A stretch of DNA of 64,000 bases from an uncultured Candidatus Saccharibacteria bacterium (GCA_964615205.1 CAZTQA010000001.1:64510-128509), one strand, 5' to 3'; positions 3,804 through 42,110 are shown, counted from the first letter of the stretch. Notes: generated by a model from the letters alone, not told the origin. Numbers and translations are program-made.

Positions 3804-4469
3804 ATGAGACTATTTATTTTATCTTGTTTTTTAACTGTTTTTTTACTAACTGGTTCTATGGTTTGTGCAGCCAGTTTAAGTTTATCGCCAGCCACTAACT
3901 CTTACAATGTGGGCGATGTATTTGAAGTTAAGATTATATTGAACACCGGCTTAGCAGATACAGATGGAGTAGATATTTATTATTTAAACTATCCTCAGAG
4001 TTCGCTAGAAGTTCAAGGAACACAAATTACAGATAATTCTCTTTATCCTATTACGGTTACAAATAATGCTTCTAATGGAAAAATTAATTTTTCTCAGGTT
4101 GTGGAGGGCGGTACCCATTATTCAACGGACGATTCTGAAAAAGTTTTAGCAACGATTACTTTTAAAGTTATAACGCAAGACACAGCTAATCTTTATTTTG
4201 ATTTTAAAGAAGGCTATACAGATGATTGTAATGTGGCTAGCGATGGTAATGATATATTAACATTGGCTACGGGAGCAAATTATTTTTTAGGTGAAGAAAT
4301 ATCTCAATCAGCTGATTTGGATGGAGACGATATTGTTGGCCCTTTAGATTTTGCGCAATTAATGATAAATTGGGGTTCTACTGATCGTTCTGCTGCCGAT
4401 ATCAACCAAGACGGCAAGGTTAATTCTGTTGATTTCGGCATTATGATGAGTCAGTGGACTACCAGTTAA
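3804..4469 (+). CDS. Secreted cohesin-like domain protein with C-terminal dockerin
   Basis: Signal peptide. N-terminal domain shared with the next three genes (LSLSP..Y.VGD.F.V.I.). Duplicated Ca-binding dockerin segments DLDGDDIVGPLDF and DINQDGKVNSVDF. Confidence 0.6.
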   Translation: MRLFILSCFLTVFLLTGSMVCAASLSLSPATNSYNVGDVFEVKIILNTGLADTDGVDIYYLNYPQSSLEVQGTQITDNSLYPITVTNNASNGKINFSQVVEGGTHYSTDDSEKVLATITFKVITQDTANLYFDFKEGYTDDCNVASDGNDILTLATGANYFLGEEISQSADLDGDDIVGPLDFAQLMINWGSTDRSAADINQDGKVNSVDFGIMMSQWTTS

Positions 4470-4476
4470 AAAAATT

Positions 4477-5085
4477 ATGAATAATAATCAAAGCATTAGT
4501 AAATTCTTAAAAAAGAAGATTAGTTTTTTCAAGGGTATAATTTTAATAATCATAGCTAGTTTCTTTTTATTGACTAGTGTGGGATTTCTACTTATTTATC
4601 AAGAAGTAGACGTAGAAAAAATTTACTTAACCCCACCCATAAATCCGAAGGCATCTCTATATCTTTCTCCGGAAAAAGGTACTTTCAAGGTAGGGGATGA
4701 CTTTATTCTTAATGTTTTAATTAACACTAAAGGAAGCGACATTGTCGCTTCAGCTGTTTATTTGAGCTATAACAGTACCAAGATGGAAGCTTTACACATT
4801 GATACTTCTGAATCTGTTTTCACTATGGAGGCAGAAAAAATAATCGACAATGAATCAGGCAATATTAAGTTAACCTTAGGCAAACCAACTCCAGGAGTTA
4901 ATACTCCTAATGGAAAAGTAGCCACTATTCACTTTAAAACTCTTGAGTCAATTAATCCCCGGAGAGATAATGTTTATTTTAACTTTGATCCAAATTCTTC
5001 TCTTTTTTCAACTGTCATTTTGGATGACAAGTTGGGTACGAATATTTTATCATCCGTTGCTGGAGCAAAAATATTTATTAAATAA
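4477..5085 (+). CDS. Membrane-anchored cohesin-like domain protein
   Basis: N-terminal TM helix (IILIIIASFFLLTSVGFLLI), then a domain with the shared GKPTPGVNTPNGKVATIHFK motif. No dockerin. Confidence 0.55.
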   Translation: MNNNQSISKFLKKKISFFKGIILIIIASFFLLTSVGFLLIYQEVDVEKIYLTPPINPKASLYLSPEKGTFKVGDDFILNVLINTKGSDIVASAVYLSYNSTKMEALHIDTSESVFTMEAEKIIDNESGNIKLTLGKPTPGVNTPNGKVATIHFKTLESINPRRDNVYFNFDPNSSLFSTVILDDKLGTNILSSVAGAKIFIK

Positions 5086-5117
5086 TAGAATATCTTAAAT
5101 CCAATATTTTTAATCTT

Positions 5118-6488
5118 ATGGAAAACAAAAAATATATTTCGAAATCAATCTTTATAGGTCTTTCGTTTATTATTTTTATTTTATTATTAATTAGCAATCC
5201 CTTAGAAACTGAAGCGGGGTGGGTTGGTAACTCAAGTTATGCTACCTTAAGATTAAGTCCTTATACCGGTGTGTATAAATTAGGAAATACTTTTTCAGTA
5301 GATGTTTATATGAATACCTATGGTCAGAACATAGTGGTTGCATCTATATTTTTAGAATACGACCCGGCTAAGTTTGAAGTAATTTCTTATGATACTACCA
5401 GTTCTGTTTTTTATGACCCAACAGGAACAAAAGAAATTTACGATGACTCAGAAATAGCCAATGGTAAATTCAGGCTTACTATAGGCAAACCAACTCCAGG
5501 AGTTAATACTTCTAATGGAAAAGTAGCCACGATTGTTTTAAAAGGAATGGGCGATACAGGCGTTCCTTCTTCTGATAACTTTACCTTTGATTTTGATTTT
5601 AGTCCACCGTCAACAAATGAATCGAATTTGCTTTTAGAGGGGGAAGTAGAAGATGTTCTTAAGGGAGTTTTAAATGCTAAATTCAGCATTGACGGAACAG
5701 CTCCACCTAAGATAACTAATTTTAATGCCACTGGTTATAATGGCTATATATCACTCTCTTGGACAAATCCAACACCAACACTTGATTTTGATAAGGTAAA
5801 AATTTTGAGAAAAACAACTAGTTCTCCAGCCAATCCTAATGATGGAAGTATGGTTTATGAAGGCACTGGTGAAAGTTATCAGGATTATGGATTGATCAAC
5901 GGGATCACTTATTATTACGCTGCTTTTTCAAAAGATGACGTTGGAAATTATTCTAGTGGTGTTACCGATTCTGCTGTACCCAGAGATCCTGTTGCGCCAG
6001 CCAAAATTACTAATCTTTTAGCCTCTTCTCCCGATTGGACTTCTATTACCCTAAACTGGACAGCTGTAGGAAATGATGGAACTTCTGGTACTGCTGCTAG
6101 TTATGATATTAGATATTCTGCTTCTACCATTACTGATTCTAACTGGTCTTCAGCCCATCAAGTTAATAACGAGCCAGATCCTAAATCAAGCGGAAATAGT
6201 GAATCAATGCAAGTCACCGGATTAGAAAGCGGAATAAATTATTACTTTGCTATAAAAGCTATTGACGAGGGCGGAAATACATCTTCTCTTTCAAATATCA
6301 CCAACGAAAAAACATATAGGCGGGCTGATTTACACAAAGATTATTATGTTAATTCGCAAGATTTTGCTATGTTAATGTCTAATTGGGGTGATCTTACTCG
6401 TCCTTCTCCCGATATAAATCAAGACGGCAATGTAGATTCTCTAGATTTTGCTATTATGATGACTCAATGGAGCAGCAGTGGATATTGA
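5118..6488 (+). CDS. Secreted cohesin-like / 2x fibronectin-III-like / dockerin protein
   Basis: Signal/TM, cohesin-like domain (GKPTPGVNTSNGKVATI), two FN3-like modules (..ISLSWTNP.., ..ITLNWTAVGNDG..YDIRYS..) and a C-terminal dockerin (DINQDGNVDSLDFAIMMTQW). Confidence 0.6.
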   Translation: MENKKYISKSIFIGLSFIIFILLLISNPLETEAGWVGNSSYATLRLSPYTGVYKLGNTFSVDVYMNTYGQNIVVASIFLEYDPAKFEVISYDTTSSVFYDPTGTKEIYDDSEIANGKFRLTIGKPTPGVNTSNGKVATIVLKGMGDTGVPSSDNFTFDFDFSPPSTNESNLLLEGEVEDVLKGVLNAKFSIDGTAPPKITNFNATGYNGYISLSWTNPTPTLDFDKVKILRKTTSSPANPNDGSMVYEGTGESYQDYGLINGITYYYAAFSKDDVGNYSSGVTDSAVPRDPVAPAKITNLLASSPDWTSITLNWTAVGNDGTSGTAASYDIRYSASTITDSNWSSAHQVNNEPDPKSSGNSESMQVTGLESGINYYFAIKAIDEGGNTSSLSNITNEKTYRRADLHKDYYVNSQDFAMLMSNWGDLTRPSPDINQDGNVDSLDFAIMMTQWSSSGY

Positions 6489-6537
6489 TAGTAACGATAA
6501 AAGGTAGTTTTATTAATTTTGTTACAGGATAAAAGTT

Positions 6538-7617
6538 ATGAAAAACTTTGATATTTTTCCAAAACTAATTATTTTAATAGGTATTTTAGGAATTTTTGTA
6601 ATACCTTCTCAAACACAAGCAAGCTTGGTTGGTAATACTAATAAAGCCACCTTAAGTCTTTCTCCTACAAGTGGTTCTTATGATGTTGGAGACACTTTTA
6701 ACTTAGATATAAAAGTAAATACTAATGGGCAGACAACAGTAGTAGTATCTGCTTATCTAAATTACGACAAAGATCATTTCAAAGCTGATAGTATTGATAC
6801 CAAGGGATCGATATTTACTGTTCAGGCTGAAAATAGTATTGATTCAAGCAACGGATTAATAAAGATTTGTCGTGGTAAGCCTACTCCTGGAATTAATACT
6901 AGTGATGGTCATGTAGCCACTGTTAATTTTACAGCTATTTCTAAAGTCACTCCCACTTCTGATAATTTTACTTTTAAATTTACTCCAGGAGCAACAACCG
7001 AATCAAATGTAATTCTAATTGGTGATAATCCTACAGACTTTCTTTCCGGTGTTTATAATGCTCGTATTTCAGTTAGCGGTGATGGCAACGGAACAGGAGA
7101 TTTGACTCCTCCTGTTATTTCTTCAATATCTGTATCTTCTATTAGTAGTTCCGGAGCGGTTATTACTTGGAAAACTAATGAGCCAGCTGATTCTCAAATA
7201 GAGTATGGCTCCAGCGTTAATTATGGTTCTCAAACCATACTCAAGACTAATTTGGTTACTTCTCACTCAGTAAATCTTTCTAATTTATCGCCAGGCACAT
7301 TCTATCATTATCGGATTAAGAGCAGAGATGAGGCTGGCAATCTGTCTACAAGTGGAGATAAAACCTTTACTACAACTGGAGGACAAACACCCAGCCAACC
7401 CAGCCAACCCAGCCAACCCAGCCAACCCAGCCAGCCCAGCCAGCCCAGCCAACCAATAGAATCTATAGAAATTGCAGAGCTTATAGGAGCATTAAAAGAT
7501 ATGAGCGATGAAGAACTAAAGATTAAAATTATTGAAGTTTTTTCCCTATTCTTGGATTTAAATAGCCGAACACTACAGGAATTACTTCTGATTGTGCCTT
7601 TTAAAATACTTTTGTAA
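6538..7617 (+). CDS. Secreted cohesin-like / FN3-like protein with (PSQ)n linker
   Basis: Signal peptide, cohesin-like domain (GKPTPGINTSDGHVATVNF), FN3-like module (AVITWKTNEPADSQIEYG..YHYRIKSRDEAGN), then the PSQPSQ.. repeat. Confidence 0.55.
   Translation: MKNFDIFPKLIILIGILGIFVIPSQTQASLVGNTNKATLSLSPTSGSYDVGDTFNLDIKVNTNGQTTVVVSAYLNYDKDHFKADSIDTKGSIFTVQAENSIDSSNGLIKICRGKPTPGINTSDGHVATVNFTAISKVTPTSDNFTFKFTPGATTESNVILIGDNPTDFLSGVYNARISVSGDGNGTGDLTPPVISSISVSSISSSGAVITWKTNEPADSQIEYGSSVNYGSQTILKTNLVTSHSVNLSNLSPGTFYHYRIKSRDEAGNLSTSGDKTFTTTGGQTPSQPSQPSQPSQPSQPSQPSQPIESIEIAELIGALKDMSDEELKIKIIEVFSLFLDLNSRTLQELLLIVPFKILL
7390..7452 (+). repeat. Seven tandem copies of a 9-nt unit (cccagccaa/g) encoding (PSQ)n
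   Basis: Counted directly: units start at 7390, 7399, 7408, 7417, 7426, 7435 and 7444. Units 5 and 6 end in g. Confidence 0.95.
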
Positions 7618-7647
7618 AGGGATTTCTTAAAATAATTGAGTGTAAAA

Positions 7648-7680
7648 AACTGCTGGAAGATATCAGTCAGTTTTTATTTT
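7648..7680 (+). terminator. Intrinsic terminator after the cohesin cluster
   Basis: AACTGCTG..CAGtCAGTT hairpin (8 bp with one bulge) followed by TTTTTATTTT. Confidence 0.65.
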
Positions 7681-7691
7681 TAAAAATTTTG

Positions 7692-7700
7692 TGTTAACAT
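7692..7700 (+). promoter_or_regulatory. Extended -10 (TGtTAACAT) 6 nt upstream of the iorA ATG
   Basis: tgttaacat at 7692-7700, ATG at 7707, no SD in between. This implies a leaderless or near-leaderless transcript. Confidence 0.4.
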
Positions 7701-7706
7701 AATTAT

Positions 7707-9386
7707 ATGTTTGAGAATATTTTAGAAAAAGAAAACAGGAAGGTTTTTTTATTAGGAAACGAAGCTGTAGTCAGGGGCGCTCTGGAAGCAGGTGTTCAGT
7801 ATGTTTCCACTTATCCTGGCACTCCAGCTTCAGAAATCGGAAATAATCTTTATCAGATTCAGAATTCTGATAAAAAAATAAAGAATCTTCATTTTGAGTT
7901 TTCAGTCAATGAAAAAGTAGCTATAGAAGGAGCAGCTGGGGCTGCTTTTTCCGGTTTGCGTTCATTGGTGGCAATGAAAAACTTTGGATTAAATGTAGCT
8001 TCTGATTTTCTTCTGCCCTTAGTCTATACCGGCATCAAAGCTGGCATGGTTATTTTAATTGCTGACGATCCAAGCTGCTGGAGTTCTGCCCAGTCGGAGG
8101 AGAATACGCGCGCTTTTGCTTATTTATCCCATATTCCTATTTTAGAGCCTTCTACACCTCAGGAATGCAAGGATTTTGTTAAATTAGGATTTGAATTGTC
8201 TGAGAAATTTGACATTCCCATAATGGTTAGGGAAACAACGCGCGTTTCCCACCAGAGCGCACCTGTAAAATTAGATAAAATAAATATATCGAGAACAGTT
8301 CTCGGCAATGCAAAGTTTATTAAGAACCACAAGAAGTTTGTGACTATGCCTCCACGGGTTTTGGAAATGCACCAGGAATTATTGGAAAAAATAGAGAAAA
8401 TCAGAAATTATTCTGAAAAATCTCCCCTCAATAAAATTGAAGAAGGTTCAACCTCCATCGATTTAGGAATTATAACATCCGGAATTTCTTATTTATATGT
8501 CAAAGAAGCGATAAAGGAATTGAACCTTTCTTTGCCTGTTTTAAAGCTGGGCTTTTTTCATCCTTTGCCAAAGAAGAAGATAAAGAAATTTATCAAAGGA
8601 TTAAAAAAAGTTTTAATTGTTGAGGAATTAGACCCTTATTTAGAAAGAGAGATAACTGTATTAGCTAAACAAGCTAATTGTCAATTGGAAATAGTTGGCA
8701 AAGAATTAATTTCAGAAGTAGGTGAACTCAAGCCAGAAATCGTCATACAGGCAGTTGCTAAAATAAGCAAAATAAACTATAAACTATTAACTATAAACTA
8801 TAAACTGCCTGGAGAAAAACGGCATCCCCAACTTTGTTCTGGCTGTCCTTATTGGCTGATTTTCAGCGGAATTAAGAGGGCAACCAAAGGAAAAGATGTT
8901 ATTTTTGGCGGAGGTATTGGATGCTATATGCTGGCTGGTTTACCGCCTCACAATATTCAAGATTATCTGTATTGTATGGGTGCTTCAGCTGGGATTGCTC
9001 ACGGTATTGCAAAAGCAAGCGGTCCCACCTTTGCTAAGGCTTCGACGGGCAAGCAAAAAGTGATTAGTCTAATGGGGGATTCAACTTTCTTTCATTCAGG
9101 CATTCCGCCTATTATTAATGCTGTTTTTAATAAATCCAATCCTTTAATTATCATCATGAATAATTCCACCACTGCTATGACTGGCCATCAACCGCATCCG
9201 GCTGCAGCTAAAGTGGAAGATAAGATAGATATTGAATCTTTAGTAAGGTCCTGCGGGGTCAAGAATTTAAAAGTTATTGACCCAGTCAAACAAAATGAAC
9301 TTGTGAAAACAATCCAGGAATTTTTAAATAAAAAAGAAGTTTCTGTTATTATTGCCCGTCATCCCTGCAAATTCGTCCAGGAATAA
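7707..9386 (+). CDS. iorA: Indolepyruvate:ferredoxin oxidoreductase, alpha subunit
   Basis: N-terminus ..LLGNEAVVRGALEAGV..STYPGTPASEI, TPP-binding GDSTFFHSGI, CSGCPYW cysteine motif. 559 aa. Confidence 0.85.
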   Translation: MFENILEKENRKVFLLGNEAVVRGALEAGVQYVSTYPGTPASEIGNNLYQIQNSDKKIKNLHFEFSVNEKVAIEGAAGAAFSGLRSLVAMKNFGLNVASDFLLPLVYTGIKAGMVILIADDPSCWSSAQSEENTRAFAYLSHIPILEPSTPQECKDFVKLGFELSEKFDIPIMVRETTRVSHQSAPVKLDKINISRTVLGNAKFIKNHKKFVTMPPRVLEMHQELLEKIEKIRNYSEKSPLNKIEEGSTSIDLGIITSGISYLYVKEAIKELNLSLPVLKLGFFHPLPKKKIKKFIKGLKKVLIVEELDPYLEREITVLAKQANCQLEIVGKELISEVGELKPEIVIQAVAKISKINYKLLTINYKLPGEKRHPQLCSGCPYWLIFSGIKRATKGKDVIFGGGIGCYMLAGLPPHNIQDYLYCMGASAGIAHGIAKASGPTFAKASTGKQKVISLMGDSTFFHSGIPPIINAVFNKSNPLIIIMNNSTTAMTGHQPHPAAAKVEDKIDIESLVRSCGVKNLKVIDPVKQNELVKTIQEFLNKKEVSVIIARHPCKFVQE

Positions 9387-9536
9387 TACGAATTTAATGC
9401 GAATAGATATTAATGCCGCGAATAAGCGGTTTTTTATTTGACTTTTGGTTTAGGTAGCATAAAAAGGAATATAGCTCGTTGACAACTTTGTTGGATGAAA
9501 TGAGCAGAAAGGAGTTAGGAGGTGAAACGAAAAAAA

Positions 9537-10415
9537 ATGGAAAAAGGATTTAGGCAAAGGCTTGCAGAACGACAGAAGAAAGTGAATTCGTTAGTGTGTG
9601 TAGGACTTGATCCGCTTGAGAGCAAAATCCCAGAGTTTATCAAGGGAAGACAACCCTGGAGTAGGATTCTTATCCAGATAAGGGAAATCATTGATGCCAC
9701 TGCTGGATATGCCTGTATGTTTAAGCCCCAGAGCGCACACTACGAAGCAGTTCCTGGAGGCCGACAAGCACTTCAATCAATTGTGGATTATATCCACACC
9801 ACATATCCTGATATTCCGGTGTTTCTTGACTGTAAACGAGGCGACATTGGACGTACTCAACAACAATATGGCATTGCTCATTTCGAAATAGACGGGGTTG
9901 ACGGAATGAATTTCAGTCCTTATATGGGAAGAGATTGCATGGAGTATCTGGTGAACGAGGACCATCCAGAGAGAGCAATTGTGGGGTTGTGCTATACCAG
10001 TAATGAATCTGCCAGGCAGGTTCAGGATGTAAAGCTAGCTGATGGTAGGTGCTACTGGGAGTTTATGGCTGAAACTACCTTGGGTTGGGCAAAGGAGCTT
10101 GGGGTTATTGAGAATGCCGGATTAGTAATGGCCGCAGCTTACGAATGGCCGAAAAAATCAGGCAATATTTTCTATGCGCACCTGTATCGGTGTCGAGAAA
10201 TCGTTGGTGATGAAATGTGGCTTTTGATTCCTGGAATTGGGACGCAAGGAGGCTTTGTTGCCGAAACTGTGAGAGCTGCCTATTCAGGTCCAGGAACAAT
10301 CGTCATAAATTCTTCCTCAGGTATAACTTTTGCCAGCTTGGACAAAGACTTTTCCGAAGTTTCTGGTAAAAAAGCCAAGGATCTCCGAGATCAAATCAAT
10401 GACAGTATTCCATGA
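9537..10415 (+). CDS. pyrF: Orotidine-5'-phosphate decarboxylase, type 2
   Basis: LVCVGLDP, FLDCKRGDIGRTQQ and LIPGIGTQGG motifs. The ORF track starts at GTG 9522. I prefer ATG 9537 by analogy with the next gene (same ggaggtgaaa..aaaaATG upstream). Confidence 0.75.
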   Translation: MEKGFRQRLAERQKKVNSLVCVGLDPLESKIPEFIKGRQPWSRILIQIREIIDATAGYACMFKPQSAHYEAVPGGRQALQSIVDYIHTTYPDIPVFLDCKRGDIGRTQQQYGIAHFEIDGVDGMNFSPYMGRDCMEYLVNEDHPERAIVGLCYTSNESARQVQDVKLADGRCYWEFMAETTLGWAKELGVIENAGLVMAAAYEWPKKSGNIFYAHLYRCREIVGDEMWLLIPGIGTQGGFVAETVRAAYSGPGTIVINSSSGITFASLDKDFSEVSGKKAKDLRDQINDSIP

Positions 10416-10512
10416 GGGAGGGATTTCAGAGATGACATAAATTATTATAATTTTTATACGGGGATTGATTTTTTTTACCCTTGTGCTTTTTTTTGGAGGT
10501 GAAAAGGAAAAA

Positions 10513-11214
10513 ATGAAAATAATTGACGCAGCTATTATAATGGAAGAAGCCATGGGTCTGCCATTAAGAGATCGTACAGTACCAGAGATTTTTGAAATGT
10601 GCGGAGCATGCTGGGTTTATAGCGGAAAACCTGGTGAACCTCATGCTCTTTTGGCGAGCGGCAGGCATAGCGATGCTTATTTCAATGTGAACTTGGTTAC
10701 TGAATTCCCTAATATTCGTAAGGAATTAGCCATGCGTTTAGTGCGCGCGTTAGACAGATTCATCGTTTCTGGCGTTGATGTCGTAGTTTCTTCAACATAC
10801 GCTGCCACAACCATTGGCCAAGCGGTCGCTGATTGCTTAAATGCTATGTTTGTTTTTACAGAAAAGGATGGCCAAGACCAGGTTTGGACAGGAAGATTTG
10901 AAATTCCTTCCGGGGCAAAAGTATTGCAAATAGAAGAACTTATAACTACTCTAGAGACTACTGAGAAAGTAAAGAAAGCGATTTTGGAGGCGGGTCTCGA
11001 TGTAGAGTTCATTAACTCCAAAGGCAAGACAATCGTTGGAACGATCGTTCATAGACCGGCGAAAGTACCCATCGATTACGAAAGTCACAAAGTTGCTTCG
11101 TTGTGGGAAAGAGAAGTCCATAGTTGGACTAAAAGAGGATGCCCGATTTGCCGGAAAGGATCCGAAGCGCTGAAGCCGAAAAAGAATTGGAATAGATTCA
11201 TAGGACGTATATAA
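10513..11214 (+). CDS. Type I phosphoribosyltransferase, orotate-PRTase-like (divergent)
   Basis: LASGRHSDAYFN (compare SSGxxSxxYFD) and a PRPP-loop-like VLQIEELITTLETTEK. Directly follows pyrF. ATG 10513 lies 13 nt after GGAGG. Confidence 0.5.
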   Translation: MKIIDAAIIMEEAMGLPLRDRTVPEIFEMCGACWVYSGKPGEPHALLASGRHSDAYFNVNLVTEFPNIRKELAMRLVRALDRFIVSGVDVVVSSTYAATTIGQAVADCLNAMFVFTEKDGQDQVWTGRFEIPSGAKVLQIEELITTLETTEKVKKAILEAGLDVEFINSKGKTIVGTIVHRPAKVPIDYESHKVASLWEREVHSWTKRGCPICRKGSEALKPKKNWNRFIGRI

Positions 11215-11216
11215 TT

Positions 11217-11258
11217 TCCCTTAGAGAGATTTCTCTTACGGGAATTTTTTTTATTGAT
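11217..11258 (+). terminator. Intrinsic terminator after the pyrF/PRTase pair
   Basis: ttcccttagagaga ttt ctcttacgggaa imperfect hairpin followed by T8. Confidence 0.65.
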
Positions 11259-11290
11259 GATTGGTAAATTTTATGATAAAGTAAAATATT

Positions 11291-11884
11291 ATGAAGGATT
11301 TTAATATTGTTATTGTCGGTACTGGCGGGCAGGGACAGATTACTCTACTTCAGGTTTTAGCTGAGGCTGCTTTAATTGAAAATTGTGACGTTAAGACATC
11401 AGAGCTTCATGGATTAAGCCAGAGAGGCGGTTCAGTAGAAGTCCATATTCGGCTAGGCCAACAAGTTTTTTCTCCTTTAGTCAAACAACAGGGGGCTGAT
11501 TTAATTTTAGCTATGGAAATGCAGGAGGCCTTAAAAGGTTTGTATTTTAGCAACAAAAATACTGTTTTCTTAATTAATAGGTTTTTTGTTCCTATTTTAG
11601 GAATTAAGTTGCTTAAGGAGAATGAAATTCTAAATAATTTAAAAAAAGTGACTAAAAATATAATTATTGTTCCGGCAGCTGATATTTGTGGAAAAGAGTT
11701 AGGCAAAAATGTAGTAGCCGGTATTTATTTATTAGGTTATGCTGCTTATAACAAAATTATTCCTTTAAAACCAAGTTCTATTGTTAAAGCAGTTGAAAAT
11801 ATCATTCCTCAAAAATATTTGGAATTGAATAAAAAAACTTTAGAGCTTTCCGAAAAATATGAAGGACCAAGAAAGAATAAATAA
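11291..11884 (+). CDS. iorB: Indolepyruvate:ferredoxin oxidoreductase, beta subunit
   Basis: NIVIVGTGGQGQITL..ELHGLSQRGGSV is typical of IorB / 2-oxoacid oxidoreductase gamma-type subunits. Confidence 0.8.
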   Translation: MKDFNIVIVGTGGQGQITLLQVLAEAALIENCDVKTSELHGLSQRGGSVEVHIRLGQQVFSPLVKQQGADLILAMEMQEALKGLYFSNKNTVFLINRFFVPILGIKLLKENEILNNLKKVTKNIIIVPAADICGKELGKNVVAGIYLLGYAAYNKIIPLKPSSIVKAVENIIPQKYLELNKKTLELSEKYEGPRKNK

Positions 11885-12872
11885 ATTTCTTAAAGAATTT
11901 GATTCTAAGTTAAGCAAGAAATATCCCCGAAAGATAGATTTTATTTTGCTTTTTGGCAGTGCTGCCAGGGGTGACTGGAAAAAGGGAGTGAGTGATGTAG
12001 ATTTAGTTATTCAAGTTAAGAAACAAGACTATATTAATGAAGTAAAAGAACATACAGACAAAATATTTTGGGAATTAGACAAAAAACACGGAACTCAGCT
12101 AAAAAATGCCTGCTCAACCGGGGATAAGAAAGACATTATTAAAAAAGCTTTGCGCAAGACAGAGCTCTATGTTCCTTATGAAGTTTTTGGACCCAAGGAC
12201 ATTGATTGGAAGAAAGGACGCATTAGAAAGAAAGAATTAATTCTGGGAGCCAAACTGATTGCTTCCCAGGCCATGCTTTTTAAAAAAATGAAGCAGGAAG
12301 GGCAGATTCTTTACGGCAGGGATATCAGAAAAGTGATTCATCCTAAGATAACCAAGTGGGAAAAAGTTAAAGCTATTTTGATTCCTTATCACATTGCTTC
12401 AGCTTCAGTTCTTCTGTCTTTGTTCTTGCCCAAAGTAGCTTTAAAAATAGCTGATAAAGCAGCTATTTATTCTATCAGTTCTACCCTTTTCTTTTTAGAT
12501 AAGCCGGTAGGCAAGGGATTAAAAAGAGACACCCAGAGATTAGAAAAAGAGATAAGAACTGATTTCAAATACAAGCGCAGTGTTTTGGGAATGATGGAAG
12601 TTGATTTTGTTTTAAATTTTGATTACAGAAAATTATTGAATTTCAAATTTGCTTCTGAAGCTATAAGATTAAAAGGCAATTGGGAAGAAGCTGAGAAATT
12701 CAATCGCTGGAAAACCTTGAGATTTTCTTTACGTTCTCTGTTTTTTGTTAATGCTATGAATTGGTATGCCATTTTGCGAAGCGACAGGCATCATCTAATT
12801 TTGAGTTTATTATTTGTTATAAGGACAATTTTATTCTTTTTAATTCTCTGGCTAATCATACATTATTTATGA
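11859..12872 (+). CDS. Nucleotidyltransferase-domain protein with hydrophobic C-terminus
   Basis: Pol-beta-type NTase signature LFGSAARGDW..SDVDLVI. C-terminal TM-like segments. Confidence 0.5.
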   Translation: MKDQERINKFLKEFDSKLSKKYPRKIDFILLFGSAARGDWKKGVSDVDLVIQVKKQDYINEVKEHTDKIFWELDKKHGTQLKNACSTGDKKDIIKKALRKTELYVPYEVFGPKDIDWKKGRIRKKELILGAKLIASQAMLFKKMKQEGQILYGRDIRKVIHPKITKWEKVKAILIPYHIASASVLLSLFLPKVALKIADKAAIYSISSTLFFLDKPVGKGLKRDTQRLEKEIRTDFKYKRSVLGMMEVDFVLNFDYRKLLNFKFASEAIRLKGNWEEAEKFNRWKTLRFSLRSLFFVNAMNWYAILRSDRHHLILSLLFVIRTILFFLILWLIIHYL

Positions 12873-32764: not shown

Positions 32765-32848
32765 TGCCGGGGGTGGGAGTCGAACCCACACGGACTTGCG
32801 TCCAAAGGTTTTTGAAACCTTCTTGTCTACCAGTTCCAACACCTCGGC
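32765..32848 (-). tRNA. tRNA-Leu (anticodon CAA)
   Basis: Reverse complement GCCGAGGTG..AAGGT-TTCAAAA-ACCTT..long variable arm..GTGGGTTCGACTCCCAC-CCCCGGC-A folds as a class II cloverleaf. One A5:C68 acceptor mismatch. CCA is not encoded. Confidence 0.85.
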
Positions 32849-41777: not shown

Positions 41778-42110
41778 ATGAACCATCTTTTTCTAGGAAA
41801 GGATGACATCATTGTCCTTGAATTTCCACCAGATCAACACCTTCCCACACTTTTTCCTGACATAGAAACAGCTGAAGAAAGGATATGGGGTTTAGTTATC
41901 CTTCCTAAAAGAGACAAATGGCGGTTAGAAGAACAAGAAACTTTGATTAATAGGACCCTGCTTGGCGAAAAAGGAAGCATTCTAGAGCAGCTAATCGGAG
42001 TTTTCAAACCTGGCAAATTAATCGGTTTTACCAATCTTCTGTCATATATGATAGAAGAAAGAAAAGATCTTTTTGAACGGAGCTTAGCTCGCTTTAGCGC
42101 TCAAGATTAA
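41778..42110 (+). CDS. Hypothetical protein (110 aa)
   Basis: ORF preceded by SD-like agaggtga 7 nt from the ATG and a TTGATT..TAATAT promoter-like pair. No motif recognised. Confidence 0.5.
   Translation: MNHLFLGKDDIIVLEFPPDQHLPTLFPDIETAEERIWGLVILPKRDKWRLEEQETLINRTLLGEKGSILEQLIGVFKPGKLIGFTNLLSYMIEERKDLFERSLARFSAQD

Follow-up and report, generated by a model that had tools for sequence, protein, structure and literature searches.

How did two genes of pyrimidine synthesis come to stand between the two subunit genes of a 2-oxoacid:ferredoxin oxidoreductase, and are they recent arrivals there? The question is raised by a stretch of 64,000 nucleotides from an uncultured bacterium (GCA_964615205.1, CAZTQA010000001.1:64510-128509), which we call the window and in which all coordinates are counted unless another locus is named. 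In the interval 9387-11290, between an iorA-like and an iorB-like gene, lie two co-oriented genes: pyrF, for a type-2 orotidine 5'-monophosphate (OMP) decarboxylase, followed by a gene for a divergent orotate phosphoribosyltransferase (OPRT), which we call OPRTL. A sequence-only reading of this DNA had recognized an OMP decarboxylase and a phosphoribosyltransferase (PRT) in 1.9 kb that split iorA from iorB, and had proposed that the pair was acquired horizontally. Profile searches and synteny confirm the split and the nature of the genes, and the two subunit genes are indeed neighbors as a rule: of 23 related loci from Patescibacteria, 21 have iorB ~10-200 bp after iorA, as do the archaeal and Firmicutes loci listed; here the distance is 1904 bp, with terminator-like elements between, and iorA and iorB do not have the adjacency expected of an iorAB operon. 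As to origin, the interval is probably the local and reduced version of an older, lineage-wide islet of pyrimidine (pyr) genes, whose genes are swapped singly and whose upstream pathway steps are being lost.

The host is a Nealsonbacteria-like Patescibacterium. Its IorA is 72-76% identical to IorA of Nealsonbacteria and Parcubacteria metagenome-assembled genomes (MAGs); among species-representative genomes the best matches are MAGs of Ca. Nealsonbacteria and Parcubacteria at 72-73%, and among 5.8 billion proteins the best match is only 73%. IorB is 68-74% identical to IorB of related genomes. The same four-gene order is found in three independent assemblies (ENA, Logan and JGI), and the arrangement is therefore not an assembly artefact. 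A composition that differs from that of the flanks is what one would see if pyr genes had been joined to iorA and iorB by metagenome misassembly, but the three assemblies come from different samples and pipelines and analogous arrangements occur in four further contigs, which leaves such a chimera next to no probability.

PyrF scores 163.2 bits against TIGR02127, above the curated cutoff of 110.6, and 62.5 bits against PF00215 (cutoff 27, 6.8e-17). Its motifs FLDCKRGDIG and PGIGTQGG align with the Leishmania donovani OMP decarboxylase structures 3qw3 and 3qw4, and both the catalytic Asp-x-Lys-x-x-Asp and the C-terminal phosphate-binding PG[IV]GxQGG are present. More than 7900 homologues are found at E<=1e-10, the best 120 of them at 61-79% identity, and all those among the best 120 that carry an organism name are from candidate-phylum bacteria, nearly all of them Patescibacteria (Portnoy-, Falkow- and Staskawiczbacteria, among others). 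The gene is thus predicted to encode an intact OMP decarboxylase, with the conversion of OMP to uridine monophosphate (UMP) as its predicted activity.

The second gene, whose start at the ATG of 10513 was checked by translation, has TIGR01367 (pyrE_Therm) as its best sequence family (69.5 bits, E 2.8e-19); because the curated cutoff of 150.25 is not reached, we file OPRTL as a divergent relative of that family and not as a member. TIGR00336 gives 35.7 bits (cutoff 106.8), and the best sequence match in the PDB is 4paw, the H. pylori OPRT HP1257 (E 1e-11). An AlphaFold2 model of OPRTL built from 45 family members (predicted local distance difference test, pLDDT, 93.8; predicted template-modelling score, pTM, 0.89) has OPRTs as its closest type I PRT folds: the first 21 matches in a Foldseek search of the PDB are without exception chains of OPRTs or UMP synthases, with 4paw in first place (E 3e-13, template-modelling score 0.66-0.80). 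The motifs of the family are EPHALL.SG.HS..Y, FTEK (with an invariant Lys118), VLQVEELITT[LMI]xTT, HRP and CPLC..GS..KPK.NW, of which SG.HS..Y, FTE[KR], the acidic pair with TT and the C-terminal CP.C are common to OPRTL and 4paw.

A word-indexed search returned 48 members of the OPRTL family and a profile search 236 cluster representatives at E<=1e-30, named in their sources as "orotate phosphoribosyltransferase", as "hypothetical protein" or by a Patescibacteria/Parcubacteria organism, and as nothing else. Across 67 metagenome loci the gene adjoins pyrF in most of those that show enough flank, either before or after it and with pyrF of type 1 or type 2, and pyrD is sometimes present too, giving pyrD-pyrF-OPRTL clusters where pyrD joins OPRTL. 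PyrF and OPRTL are fused in four cluster representatives, of which P0297, P0334 and P0367 are full length (466-486 aa, with the PF00215 domain N-terminal) and the fourth is P0036. In the iorA|iorB islets described below, OPRTL takes the slot that in others is held by a pyrE of the TIGR00336 type. The fold, the linkage to pyrF, the fusions and the presence of a single PRT gene per cassette lead us to take OPRTL as the OPRT of these organisms, one that would fill the role of PyrE. We found nothing in the literature on OPRT in the candidate phyla radiation, on IOR in Parcubacteria or on HP1257. One metagenome contig (L110, 94-2446) carries the order OPRTL-pyrF2-OPRTL, with diverged copies 47% and 41% identical to the OPRTL of the window.

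Some properties of OPRTL weigh against this assignment. Besides its sub-cutoff score, it has no Pfam match, PF00156 (Pribosyltran) giving none even at E<=10. The canonical loop that binds phosphoribosyl pyrophosphate (PRPP) has two acidic and two hydrophobic residues followed by T-T-G-x-[ST]; OPRTL keeps the acidic pair (E141, E142) and the TT (145-146), but the glycine is replaced, by Leu in the window (EELITTLETT) and by Leu, Met, Ile or other residues throughout the family, the PyrF fusions included. With PurR and APRT chains also appearing among the fold matches, at lower rank, these properties would fit a PRT-fold protein with some other role, such as a PyrR/PurR-like regulator or another base or sugar-phosphate transferase. 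That seems to us quite unlikely in view of the ranking of the fold matches, the fusions to OMP decarboxylase in at least three distinct clusters, the mutual exclusion of OPRTL and TIGR00336-type pyrE in the pyrE slot, the lack of a DNA- or RNA-binding domain, and the retention of the acidic pair, the TT motif and the invariant Lys118. Nor do OPRTL cassettes contain a second PRT gene (L001, L005, L163), while those that lack OPRTL have a TIGR00336- or TIGR01367-like pyrE.

An insertion of foreign DNA into this genome would be expected to be unique to it, and the comparison of related loci (numbered L001-L164 in our survey) does not bear this out. Three other lineages of the window's IorA clade hold pyr genes at the iorA|iorB site. 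In L163 (JGI Ga0451374_93994) the order is leuS-glmS-ppa-iorA-ΨpyrD-pyrF1-OPRTL-iorB-PMM (PMM, phosphomannomutase), with pyrF-OPRTL directly before iorB as in the window; in L014 (Parcubacteria RS_17_37) it is iorA-pyrD-pyrF1-pyrE (TIGR00336-like)-iorB; and in L159, L161 and L162 it is ppa-iorA-pyrC-ΨpyrD-pyrF2-pyrE, after which the contig ends. L012 and L013 (the closest GTDB relatives), L164 and ~18 more distant genomes have no islet. A neighbor-joining tree of IorA places the window with L159, L012, L013 and L014, a group that ~90% of 200 bootstraps recover, whether L015 is counted in or not.

The window and L159 have more in common than the occupied site. Their blastn match extends 39 nt past the iorA stop codon, to 9425, at a place where the matches to L012, L164, L163 and L014 have already ended before the stop, and it resumes in the 30 nt upstream of pyrF2, including the Shine-Dalgarno (SD) module described below, and in the spacer downstream of pyrF2. 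The simplest account of this common DNA at the flanks of iorA and of pyrF2 is that the iorA|pyrF2 arrangement is older than the split between the two lineages; on the simplest reading the window would since have lost pyrC and pyrD, and the pyrE slot would have been filled differently in the window and in L159. We favor one origin for the islet, followed by a single loss, without regarding it as proven. A single insertion calls for a clean loss in L012, L013 and L164, separate insertions in three lineages would take about as many events, and near iorB the junctions resemble one another only over short, AT-rich stretches. Other points weigh against our reading of the islet as a whole: bootstrap support for the IorA clade is only moderate, and the hairpins of the islet are energetically indistinguishable from shuffled sequence. 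What we see, moreover, is 64 kb of a genome; pyrB, pyrC, pyrD and carAB may lie elsewhere in it, and the pair would then belong to a full de novo pathway and not to salvage.

The content of the islet is mosaic, with a pyrF of type 1 or type 2 and a pyrE slot that holds either a TIGR00336-type pyrE or OPRTL, and it is possible to see how this mosaicism arises by comparing L163 with L014. The two are 96-99% identical in nucleotide sequence over ~8.9 kb on the left and 1.7 kb on the right, their IorA, IorB and PyrF1 proteins being 98.9%, 96.9% and 98% identical; the pyrE slot, however, is OPRTL in L163 (11880-12593) and a TIGR00336-like pyrE in L014 (8972-9759), with no nucleotide similarity between them, and the divergence sets in and ends no more than a few tens of nucleotides from the ends of the open reading frames (ORFs). 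Near-identical flanks around an unrelated pyrE slot indicate turnover by one-gene replacement. A second case involves L001, the pyrD-pyrF1-OPRTL cluster of Nealsonbacteria JAUWMZ01, a genome in which iorA and iorB are adjacent and the cluster is not at the iorA|iorB site. Its pyrF1 is 92.7% identical in nucleotide sequence to that of L014 (0.80 at four-fold degenerate sites), whereas the iorA genes of the same two genomes are 73.5% identical (0.34); the block of high identity has its left edge exactly at TAGGAGGTG and its right edge within the hairpin that follows the stop codon. Together, the pyrF1 and pyrE-slot comparisons indicate that pyr genes do move between these genomes. L001 also contains a gene for an IS200/IS605-type Y1 transposase (6205-7056 of that locus) between pyrD and pyrF1.

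For the window's own pyrF and OPRTL no recent transfer event is visible. Four-fold identity to the nearest homologues is 0.46 for pyrF2 and 0.31 for OPRTL, near saturation, with iorA at 0.34-0.41, and in the three genomes that have both proteins the OPRTL identities (60.6, 58.8 and 52.0%) track those of IorA (74.0, 74.0 and 69.8%). One might therefore suppose a purely vertical history, in which the islet has come down unchanged from the ancestor of the clade and owes its G+C content and SD modules to selection, for expression level or SD-dependent control, with no transfer at all. The tracking of identities, the preservation of SD modules at saturated synonymous divergence (which argues for selection) and the raised third-position G+C of the EF-G and ribosomal-protein genes would all agree with that. 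Against it stand the mosaic content of the islet, the replacement seen directly between L163 and L014, the excess identity of pyrF1 over iorA (93% against 74%) between L001 and L014, and the PyrF2 of L159, which is nearer to a Portnoybacteria copy (86%) than to that of the window (78%). We thus regard an exclusively vertical descent as unlikely and return to an old islet in which recombination with other Patescibacteria would have replaced single genes, one after another.

The case for horizontal acquisition had been built in part on composition, and the compositional difference itself is real. G+C is 44.9% in pyrF and 43.2% in OPRTL, compared with 34.4% for the window, 32.2% for iorB and 37.2% for iorA, and G+C at third codon positions (GC3) is 0.399 and 0.385, respectively. 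When each of 65 ORFs was compared with its own protein recoded with host codon usage, pyrF had a GC3 excess of z=4.5 (rank 1 of 65) and OPRTL of z=3.7 (rank 3 of 65); Karlin codon bias gave z=3.7 for pyrF and z=1.3 for OPRTL. The excess is not unique to the pair, values of ~2.7-3.9 being found also for EF-G, L3, S10, S12, a UDG and a cupin, and the presence of translation genes in this list shows that in this genome a raised GC3 does not single out foreign DNA. Across 33 loci the GC3 of pyr genes exceeds that of their neighbors inconsistently, by +0.019 on average and in 21 of the 33, with the window (+0.11) at the high end. The strongest deviation in codon usage anywhere in the window belongs to a 110-aa ORF at 41778-42110 that has no Pfam match and, as it happens, an SD module in the style of the pyr genes, AGAGGTGAAAAAAAATG.

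Viewed as a candidate genomic island, the interval has the atypical composition but neither mobility hallmarks nor a distinct donor lineage. Around 9387-11290 there are no direct or inverted repeats of note, only short matches at chance level; the junction alignments with islet-free relatives contain no target-site duplication; the ORFs beside the insert (6538-12872) have no Pfam match to mobility genes; and the window's only tRNA is at 32765-32848. As for the donor, the best OPRTL homologue (60%) lies in Ca. Nealsonbacteria JAUWMZ01, the genome that also gives a near-best IorA match (72-74%). The sequence-only reading had named two outcomes that would refute it: best matches of both proteins in the lineage of the flanking genes, which is what we find, and one and the same insertion with host-like composition in all related genomes, of which we find a modified form. 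A recent transfer of a foreign pyrF-PRT cassette, from a G+C-richer and SD-using donor into the iorAB of this genome only, could draw on the GC3 ranks of the two genes, on their two full SD modules, which have no counterpart elsewhere in the window, and on the adjacency of iorA and iorB in L012, L013 and L164. It is nevertheless very unlikely, given that the named homologues of both proteins, like those of the flanking genes, are nearly all from Patescibacteria, that three other lineages of the clade have this site occupied by pyr genes too, that flank DNA is common to the window and L159, that no homologue above 79% (pyrF2) or 60% (OPRTL) exists among the 5.8 billion proteins while four-fold sites are near saturation, that repeats, tRNA, integrase and transposase are all absent from the flanks, and that translation genes of the window show a similar GC3 excess. 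What survives of the proposed horizontal acquisition is that the pair belongs to a pool of horizontally exchanged pyr genes; its being recent or newly inserted foreign DNA does not survive. The higher G+C and the SD modules would then belong to the exchanged pyr genes as a set, or reflect selection on them, and would not be scars of a recent insertion from outside the lineage.

The SD modules had likewise been put forward as a sign of foreign origin, and here too the observation holds while its meaning changes. There are exactly two copies of GGAGGTGAAA in the 64 kb, counting both strands, at 9518 and 10495; they start 18-19 nt before the ATGs of pyrF and OPRTL, with a spacer of 9 or 8 nt, and a 22-nt module is repeated at 86% identity. 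Elsewhere in the window such signals are rare: an SD core of at least 5 nt precedes only ~8 of 65 ORFs, and the ribosomal-protein and elongation-factor genes have no SD or merely a 4-nt partial match. We surveyed ~70 Patescibacteria loci for an SD core 5-13 nt before the start codon, counting pyrD, pyrF and pyrE-like genes as pyr genes, and found one before 68 of 104 pyr genes (65%) and before 39 of 315 neighboring genes (12%; odds ratio 13, Fisher p 1e-24). Genes led by an SD thus make up a minority class in genomes where SD sites are otherwise scarce, and the modules go with the pyr genes of these bacteria as a set, giving no evidence of recent arrival. That the module before pyrF2 is identical in the window and L159, amid near-saturated synonymous sites, suggests that selection preserves it. 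According to a published survey, about half of the Parcubacteria lack the anti-SD motif (PMC9297842). The window contains no rRNA gene at the Rfam gathering threshold, and hence no anti-SD to read. Atypical G+C and strong SD sites inside a split operon do not, then, by themselves indicate a fresh foreign insertion, and the enrichment offers a testable lead on translation initiation in bacteria where the anti-SD is often missing. The features of the islet and its borders are collected in Table 1.

Table 1. Features of the pyr islet and of its iorA and iorB borders, in window coordinates
Feature	Position	Strand	Basis or remark
iorA-like gene (2-oxoacid:ferredoxin oxidoreductase alpha subunit), left islet border	7707..9386	+	TIGR03336 IOR_alpha; Pfam POR_N and TPP_enzyme_C
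iorA 3' flank, homologous to the iorA 3' flank of L159/L161	9387..9425	+	blastn
Weak hairpin GCCGC...GCGGT (9415-9430), then T-run TTTTTTATTT, after iorA	9415..9440	+	terminator scan
SD module 1, TTAGGAGGTGAAACGAAAAAAA	9515..9536	+	abuts pyrF ATG; same module before pyrF2 in L159
pyrF, type-2 orotidine-5'-phosphate decarboxylase, 292 aa (predicted)	9537..10415	+	TIGR02127 pyrF_sub2, PF00215, motifs
Weak U-rich-loop hairpin CGGGG...ACCC, then T-run, in pyrF-OPRTL spacer	10459..10494	+	read from sequence; fold not significant
SD module 2, TTTGGAGGTGAAAAGGAAAAA	10492..10512	+	abuts OPRTL ATG
OPRTL, divergent Thermus-type orotate phosphoribosyltransferase, 233 aa (predicted)	10513..11214	+	TIGR01367 below cutoff, AlphaFold2 fold, neighborhood
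Terminator-like hairpin after OPRTL: stem 11216-11244, T8 11245-11252	11216..11252	+	form of intrinsic terminator
AT-rich stretch before iorB, TTTTATGATAAAGTAAAATATT, with -10-like hexamers; possible iorB promoter	11266..11290	+	similarity to L014/L163
iorB-like gene, 197 aa, right islet border	11291..11884	+	PF01558 POR, 1.8e-24

Three hairpins punctuate the interval, two of which the sequence-only reading had picked out. The weak one after iorA was recovered by the terminator scan, and its region folds at -12.1 kcal/mol (z -1.2), no better than shuffled sequence. The one after OPRTL, which had been called a clear terminator, does have the form of one, with an interrupted stem of 10 bp; at -11.1 kcal/mol (z -1.2) it is absent from the consensus list of the terminator scans. 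If it closes the pair as its form suggests, iorB probably has its own promoter and is transcribed separately: transcription of the islet would end at 11216-11252, and iorB would be read from the -10-like sequences at 11266-11290. That AT-rich stretch is short; it is common to the regions upstream of iorB in L014 and L163 and is not found in the iorA-iorB spacers of the islet-free L164 and L013. We rejected it as proof of a single origin, since the similarity at this right junction extends over only ~25 AT-rich nucleotides and is too weak. Also set aside was a TTCCGAGAAnnnTTCTCGGAA hairpin common to L014 and L159, which does not occur in the window, the best match having 3 mismatches and lying inside iorA. 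Searched with Rfam at the gathering threshold, the whole window yields one tRNA (32765-32848), and a permissive Rfam search of 9300-11400 yields nothing.

The hairpin in the pyrF-OPRTL spacer aligns at 72-75% to the L159 spacer downstream of pyrF2 (5770-5815), and similar 3' elements follow pyrF1 in L001 (~7995-8030), L014 and L163. In the Nealsonbacteria-like clade, with type-1 and type-2 pyrF alike, the element consists of a short G/C stem, a U-rich loop of 11-14 nt and a T-run that precedes the SD of the next gene. The arrangement recalls attenuators sensitive to uridine triphosphate (UTP), of which E. coli rph-pyrE is an example. A general pyrF-pyrE attenuator was rejected: the U-rich-loop hairpin is confined to Nealsonbacteria-like loci (the window, L159, L001/2, L014 and L163), most other pyrF-OPRTL spacers are 2-30 nt long and contain only an SD site, and the copy in the window folds like shuffled sequence. 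We retain the element as a clade-specific lead.

What the pair does can be proposed from the predicted activities. Each gene would be translated from its own strong SD site, and PyrF and OPRTL together would convert orotate and PRPP to OMP and then to UMP. The earlier statement that no other de novo pyrimidine genes lie nearby stands, as tblastn with queries from related loci found no pyrC, pyrD, pyrI or other pyrE in the 64 kb. The pathway seems to be eroding in sister lineages as well. The pyrD of L163 has a frameshifting 73-nt deletion (9832-9903) that brings a stop after 22 codons, while that of its near-identical sister L014 is intact, and L159 retains only a 62-codon N-terminal remnant of pyrD (4293-4478), followed by a ~40-nt tandem duplication. 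Such decay fits a reduced orotate-to-UMP module from which the pyrC and pyrD steps would be in the course of being lost. Nealsonbacteria have been reported to lack complete nucleotide synthesis (bioRxiv 10.1101/2022.04.20.488981). With pyrC and pyrD absent locally and pyrD decaying in sister lineages, this makes an orotate-to-UMP conversion without the upstream steps, as the sequence-only reading had suggested, a reasonable interpretation, and on the basis of these 64 kb the pair may salvage orotate supplied from outside. The intact islet PyrD of L014 (6832-7941) is a quinone-dependent class 2 dihydroorotate dehydrogenase by its profile score (370 bits, above cutoff). These bacteria are generally regarded as being without quinones and a respiratory chain.

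The flanking genes have peculiarities of their own. IorA scores 614.6 bits against TIGR03336, slightly below the cutoff of 650.9, and IorB 135.9 bits against the NCBIfam IOR beta models, well below the cutoff of 230; with both subunits under the IOR equivalog cutoffs, the profile scores do not fix their substrate specificity. The match of IorA to TIGR03336 stops at model position 534 of 595, and all the Patescibacteria homologues (L012-L034) are 530-586 aa long. Canonical IorA carries two [4Fe-4S] motifs in its C-terminal stretch, and this stretch seems to be missing from the IorA of the window and its Patescibacteria homologues. In L015 (4471-11162), a member of the clade, iorA is followed by nusG and genes for L11, a dCMP deaminase and a thyX-like protein, with no iorB within 5 kb. 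To the right of the islet, a gene for a 337-aa protein with a nucleotidyltransferase domain (NTP_transf_2/Polbeta; 11859-12872) lies between iorB and the PMM gene, overlapping the former by 26 nt and the latter by 4 nt; it has no SD site and a host-like G+C content. Since PMM directly follows iorB in L012, L013, L163 and L164, this gene is a second single-gene insertion beside the pyr islet. To the left, where all relatives have leuS-glmS-ppa upstream of iorA, the window has three consecutive genes (4477-7617) for paralogous secreted or surface proteins of 202, 456 and 359 aa, which have a common N-terminal domain with the motif GKPTPGVNT.NGKVATI; two of them contain fn3 domains, and a (PSQ)n repeat lies at ~7285-7450 in the third.

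A broader interpretation can be sketched, one that we hold tentatively and rate as rather doubtful. In it, the pyr genes of SD-poor Patescibacteria would be a class apart, made up of single genes that can be swapped as units, each bounded 5' by a conserved SD-plus-A-run, TAGGAGGTGAAA..A6-7ATG, and 3', in the Nealsonbacteria-like clade, by the U-rich-loop hairpin; these shared boundaries would have two roles, as signals for SD-dependent and possibly pyrimidine-responsive expression and as anchors for recombination. If this were true, the boundary anchors would allow one-gene replacement between genomes, and the iorA|iorB spacer would be a preferred docking site. Apart from this conjecture, the islet provides a small-scale picture of how a pathway is remodelled in reduced, symbiont-like genomes, with alternative versions at one site, swaps of one gene at a time and erosion of the upstream steps until only the orotate-to-UMP module is left. 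The novelty is modest and consists of a member of an OPRT subfamily and a further example of in-situ gene turnover. The subfamily appears to be restricted to Patescibacteria and to have an altered PRPP loop, and its members are at present annotated as hypothetical or without a Pfam domain; recognizing them should improve estimates of the capacity of Patescibacteria for nucleotide synthesis.

Each part of the islet can be set beside a known system. PyrF resembles the type-2 OMP decarboxylases (TIGR02127) of actinobacteria, kinetoplastids and apicomplexa in its above-cutoff score, its DxKxxD and PGIGxQGG motifs and its length of ~290 aa, with no notable difference other than its place in a very large and unusually conserved Patescibacteria set. 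OPRTL is likest to the Thermus-type OPRTs (TIGR01367; 4paw), which provide its best family, best PDB sequence match and best fold and have the CP.C...KP tail in common with it; it differs in having EELITT[LMI]xTT where they have EDIITTGKS, in ~30 extra N-terminal residues and in that its named members are from Patescibacteria. The pair as a whole places side by side the same two predicted activities as the bifunctional UMP synthases with the OMP decarboxylase-OPRT order (Leishmania donovani 3qw4; cyanobacterial PRK05500), an order of fusion that recurs in the relatives P0297, P0334 and P0367; in the window, by contrast, the genes are separate, 97 nt apart and with an SD site each, and the OPRT half is of another subfamily. 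In in-situ gene displacement, finally, a gene is replaced by a distant or non-orthologous equivalent within a small genomic islet. The pyr islet departs from the islets so described in that it sits inside what is usually a two-subunit operon and shows no sign of an integrase, a tRNA, attachment repeats or integron-type sites. It resembles them in occupying a fixed site between conserved genes, in offering alternative genes for each step (pyrF of type 1 or 2; pyrE of the TIGR00336 type or OPRTL) and in having conserved flanks that allow recombination.

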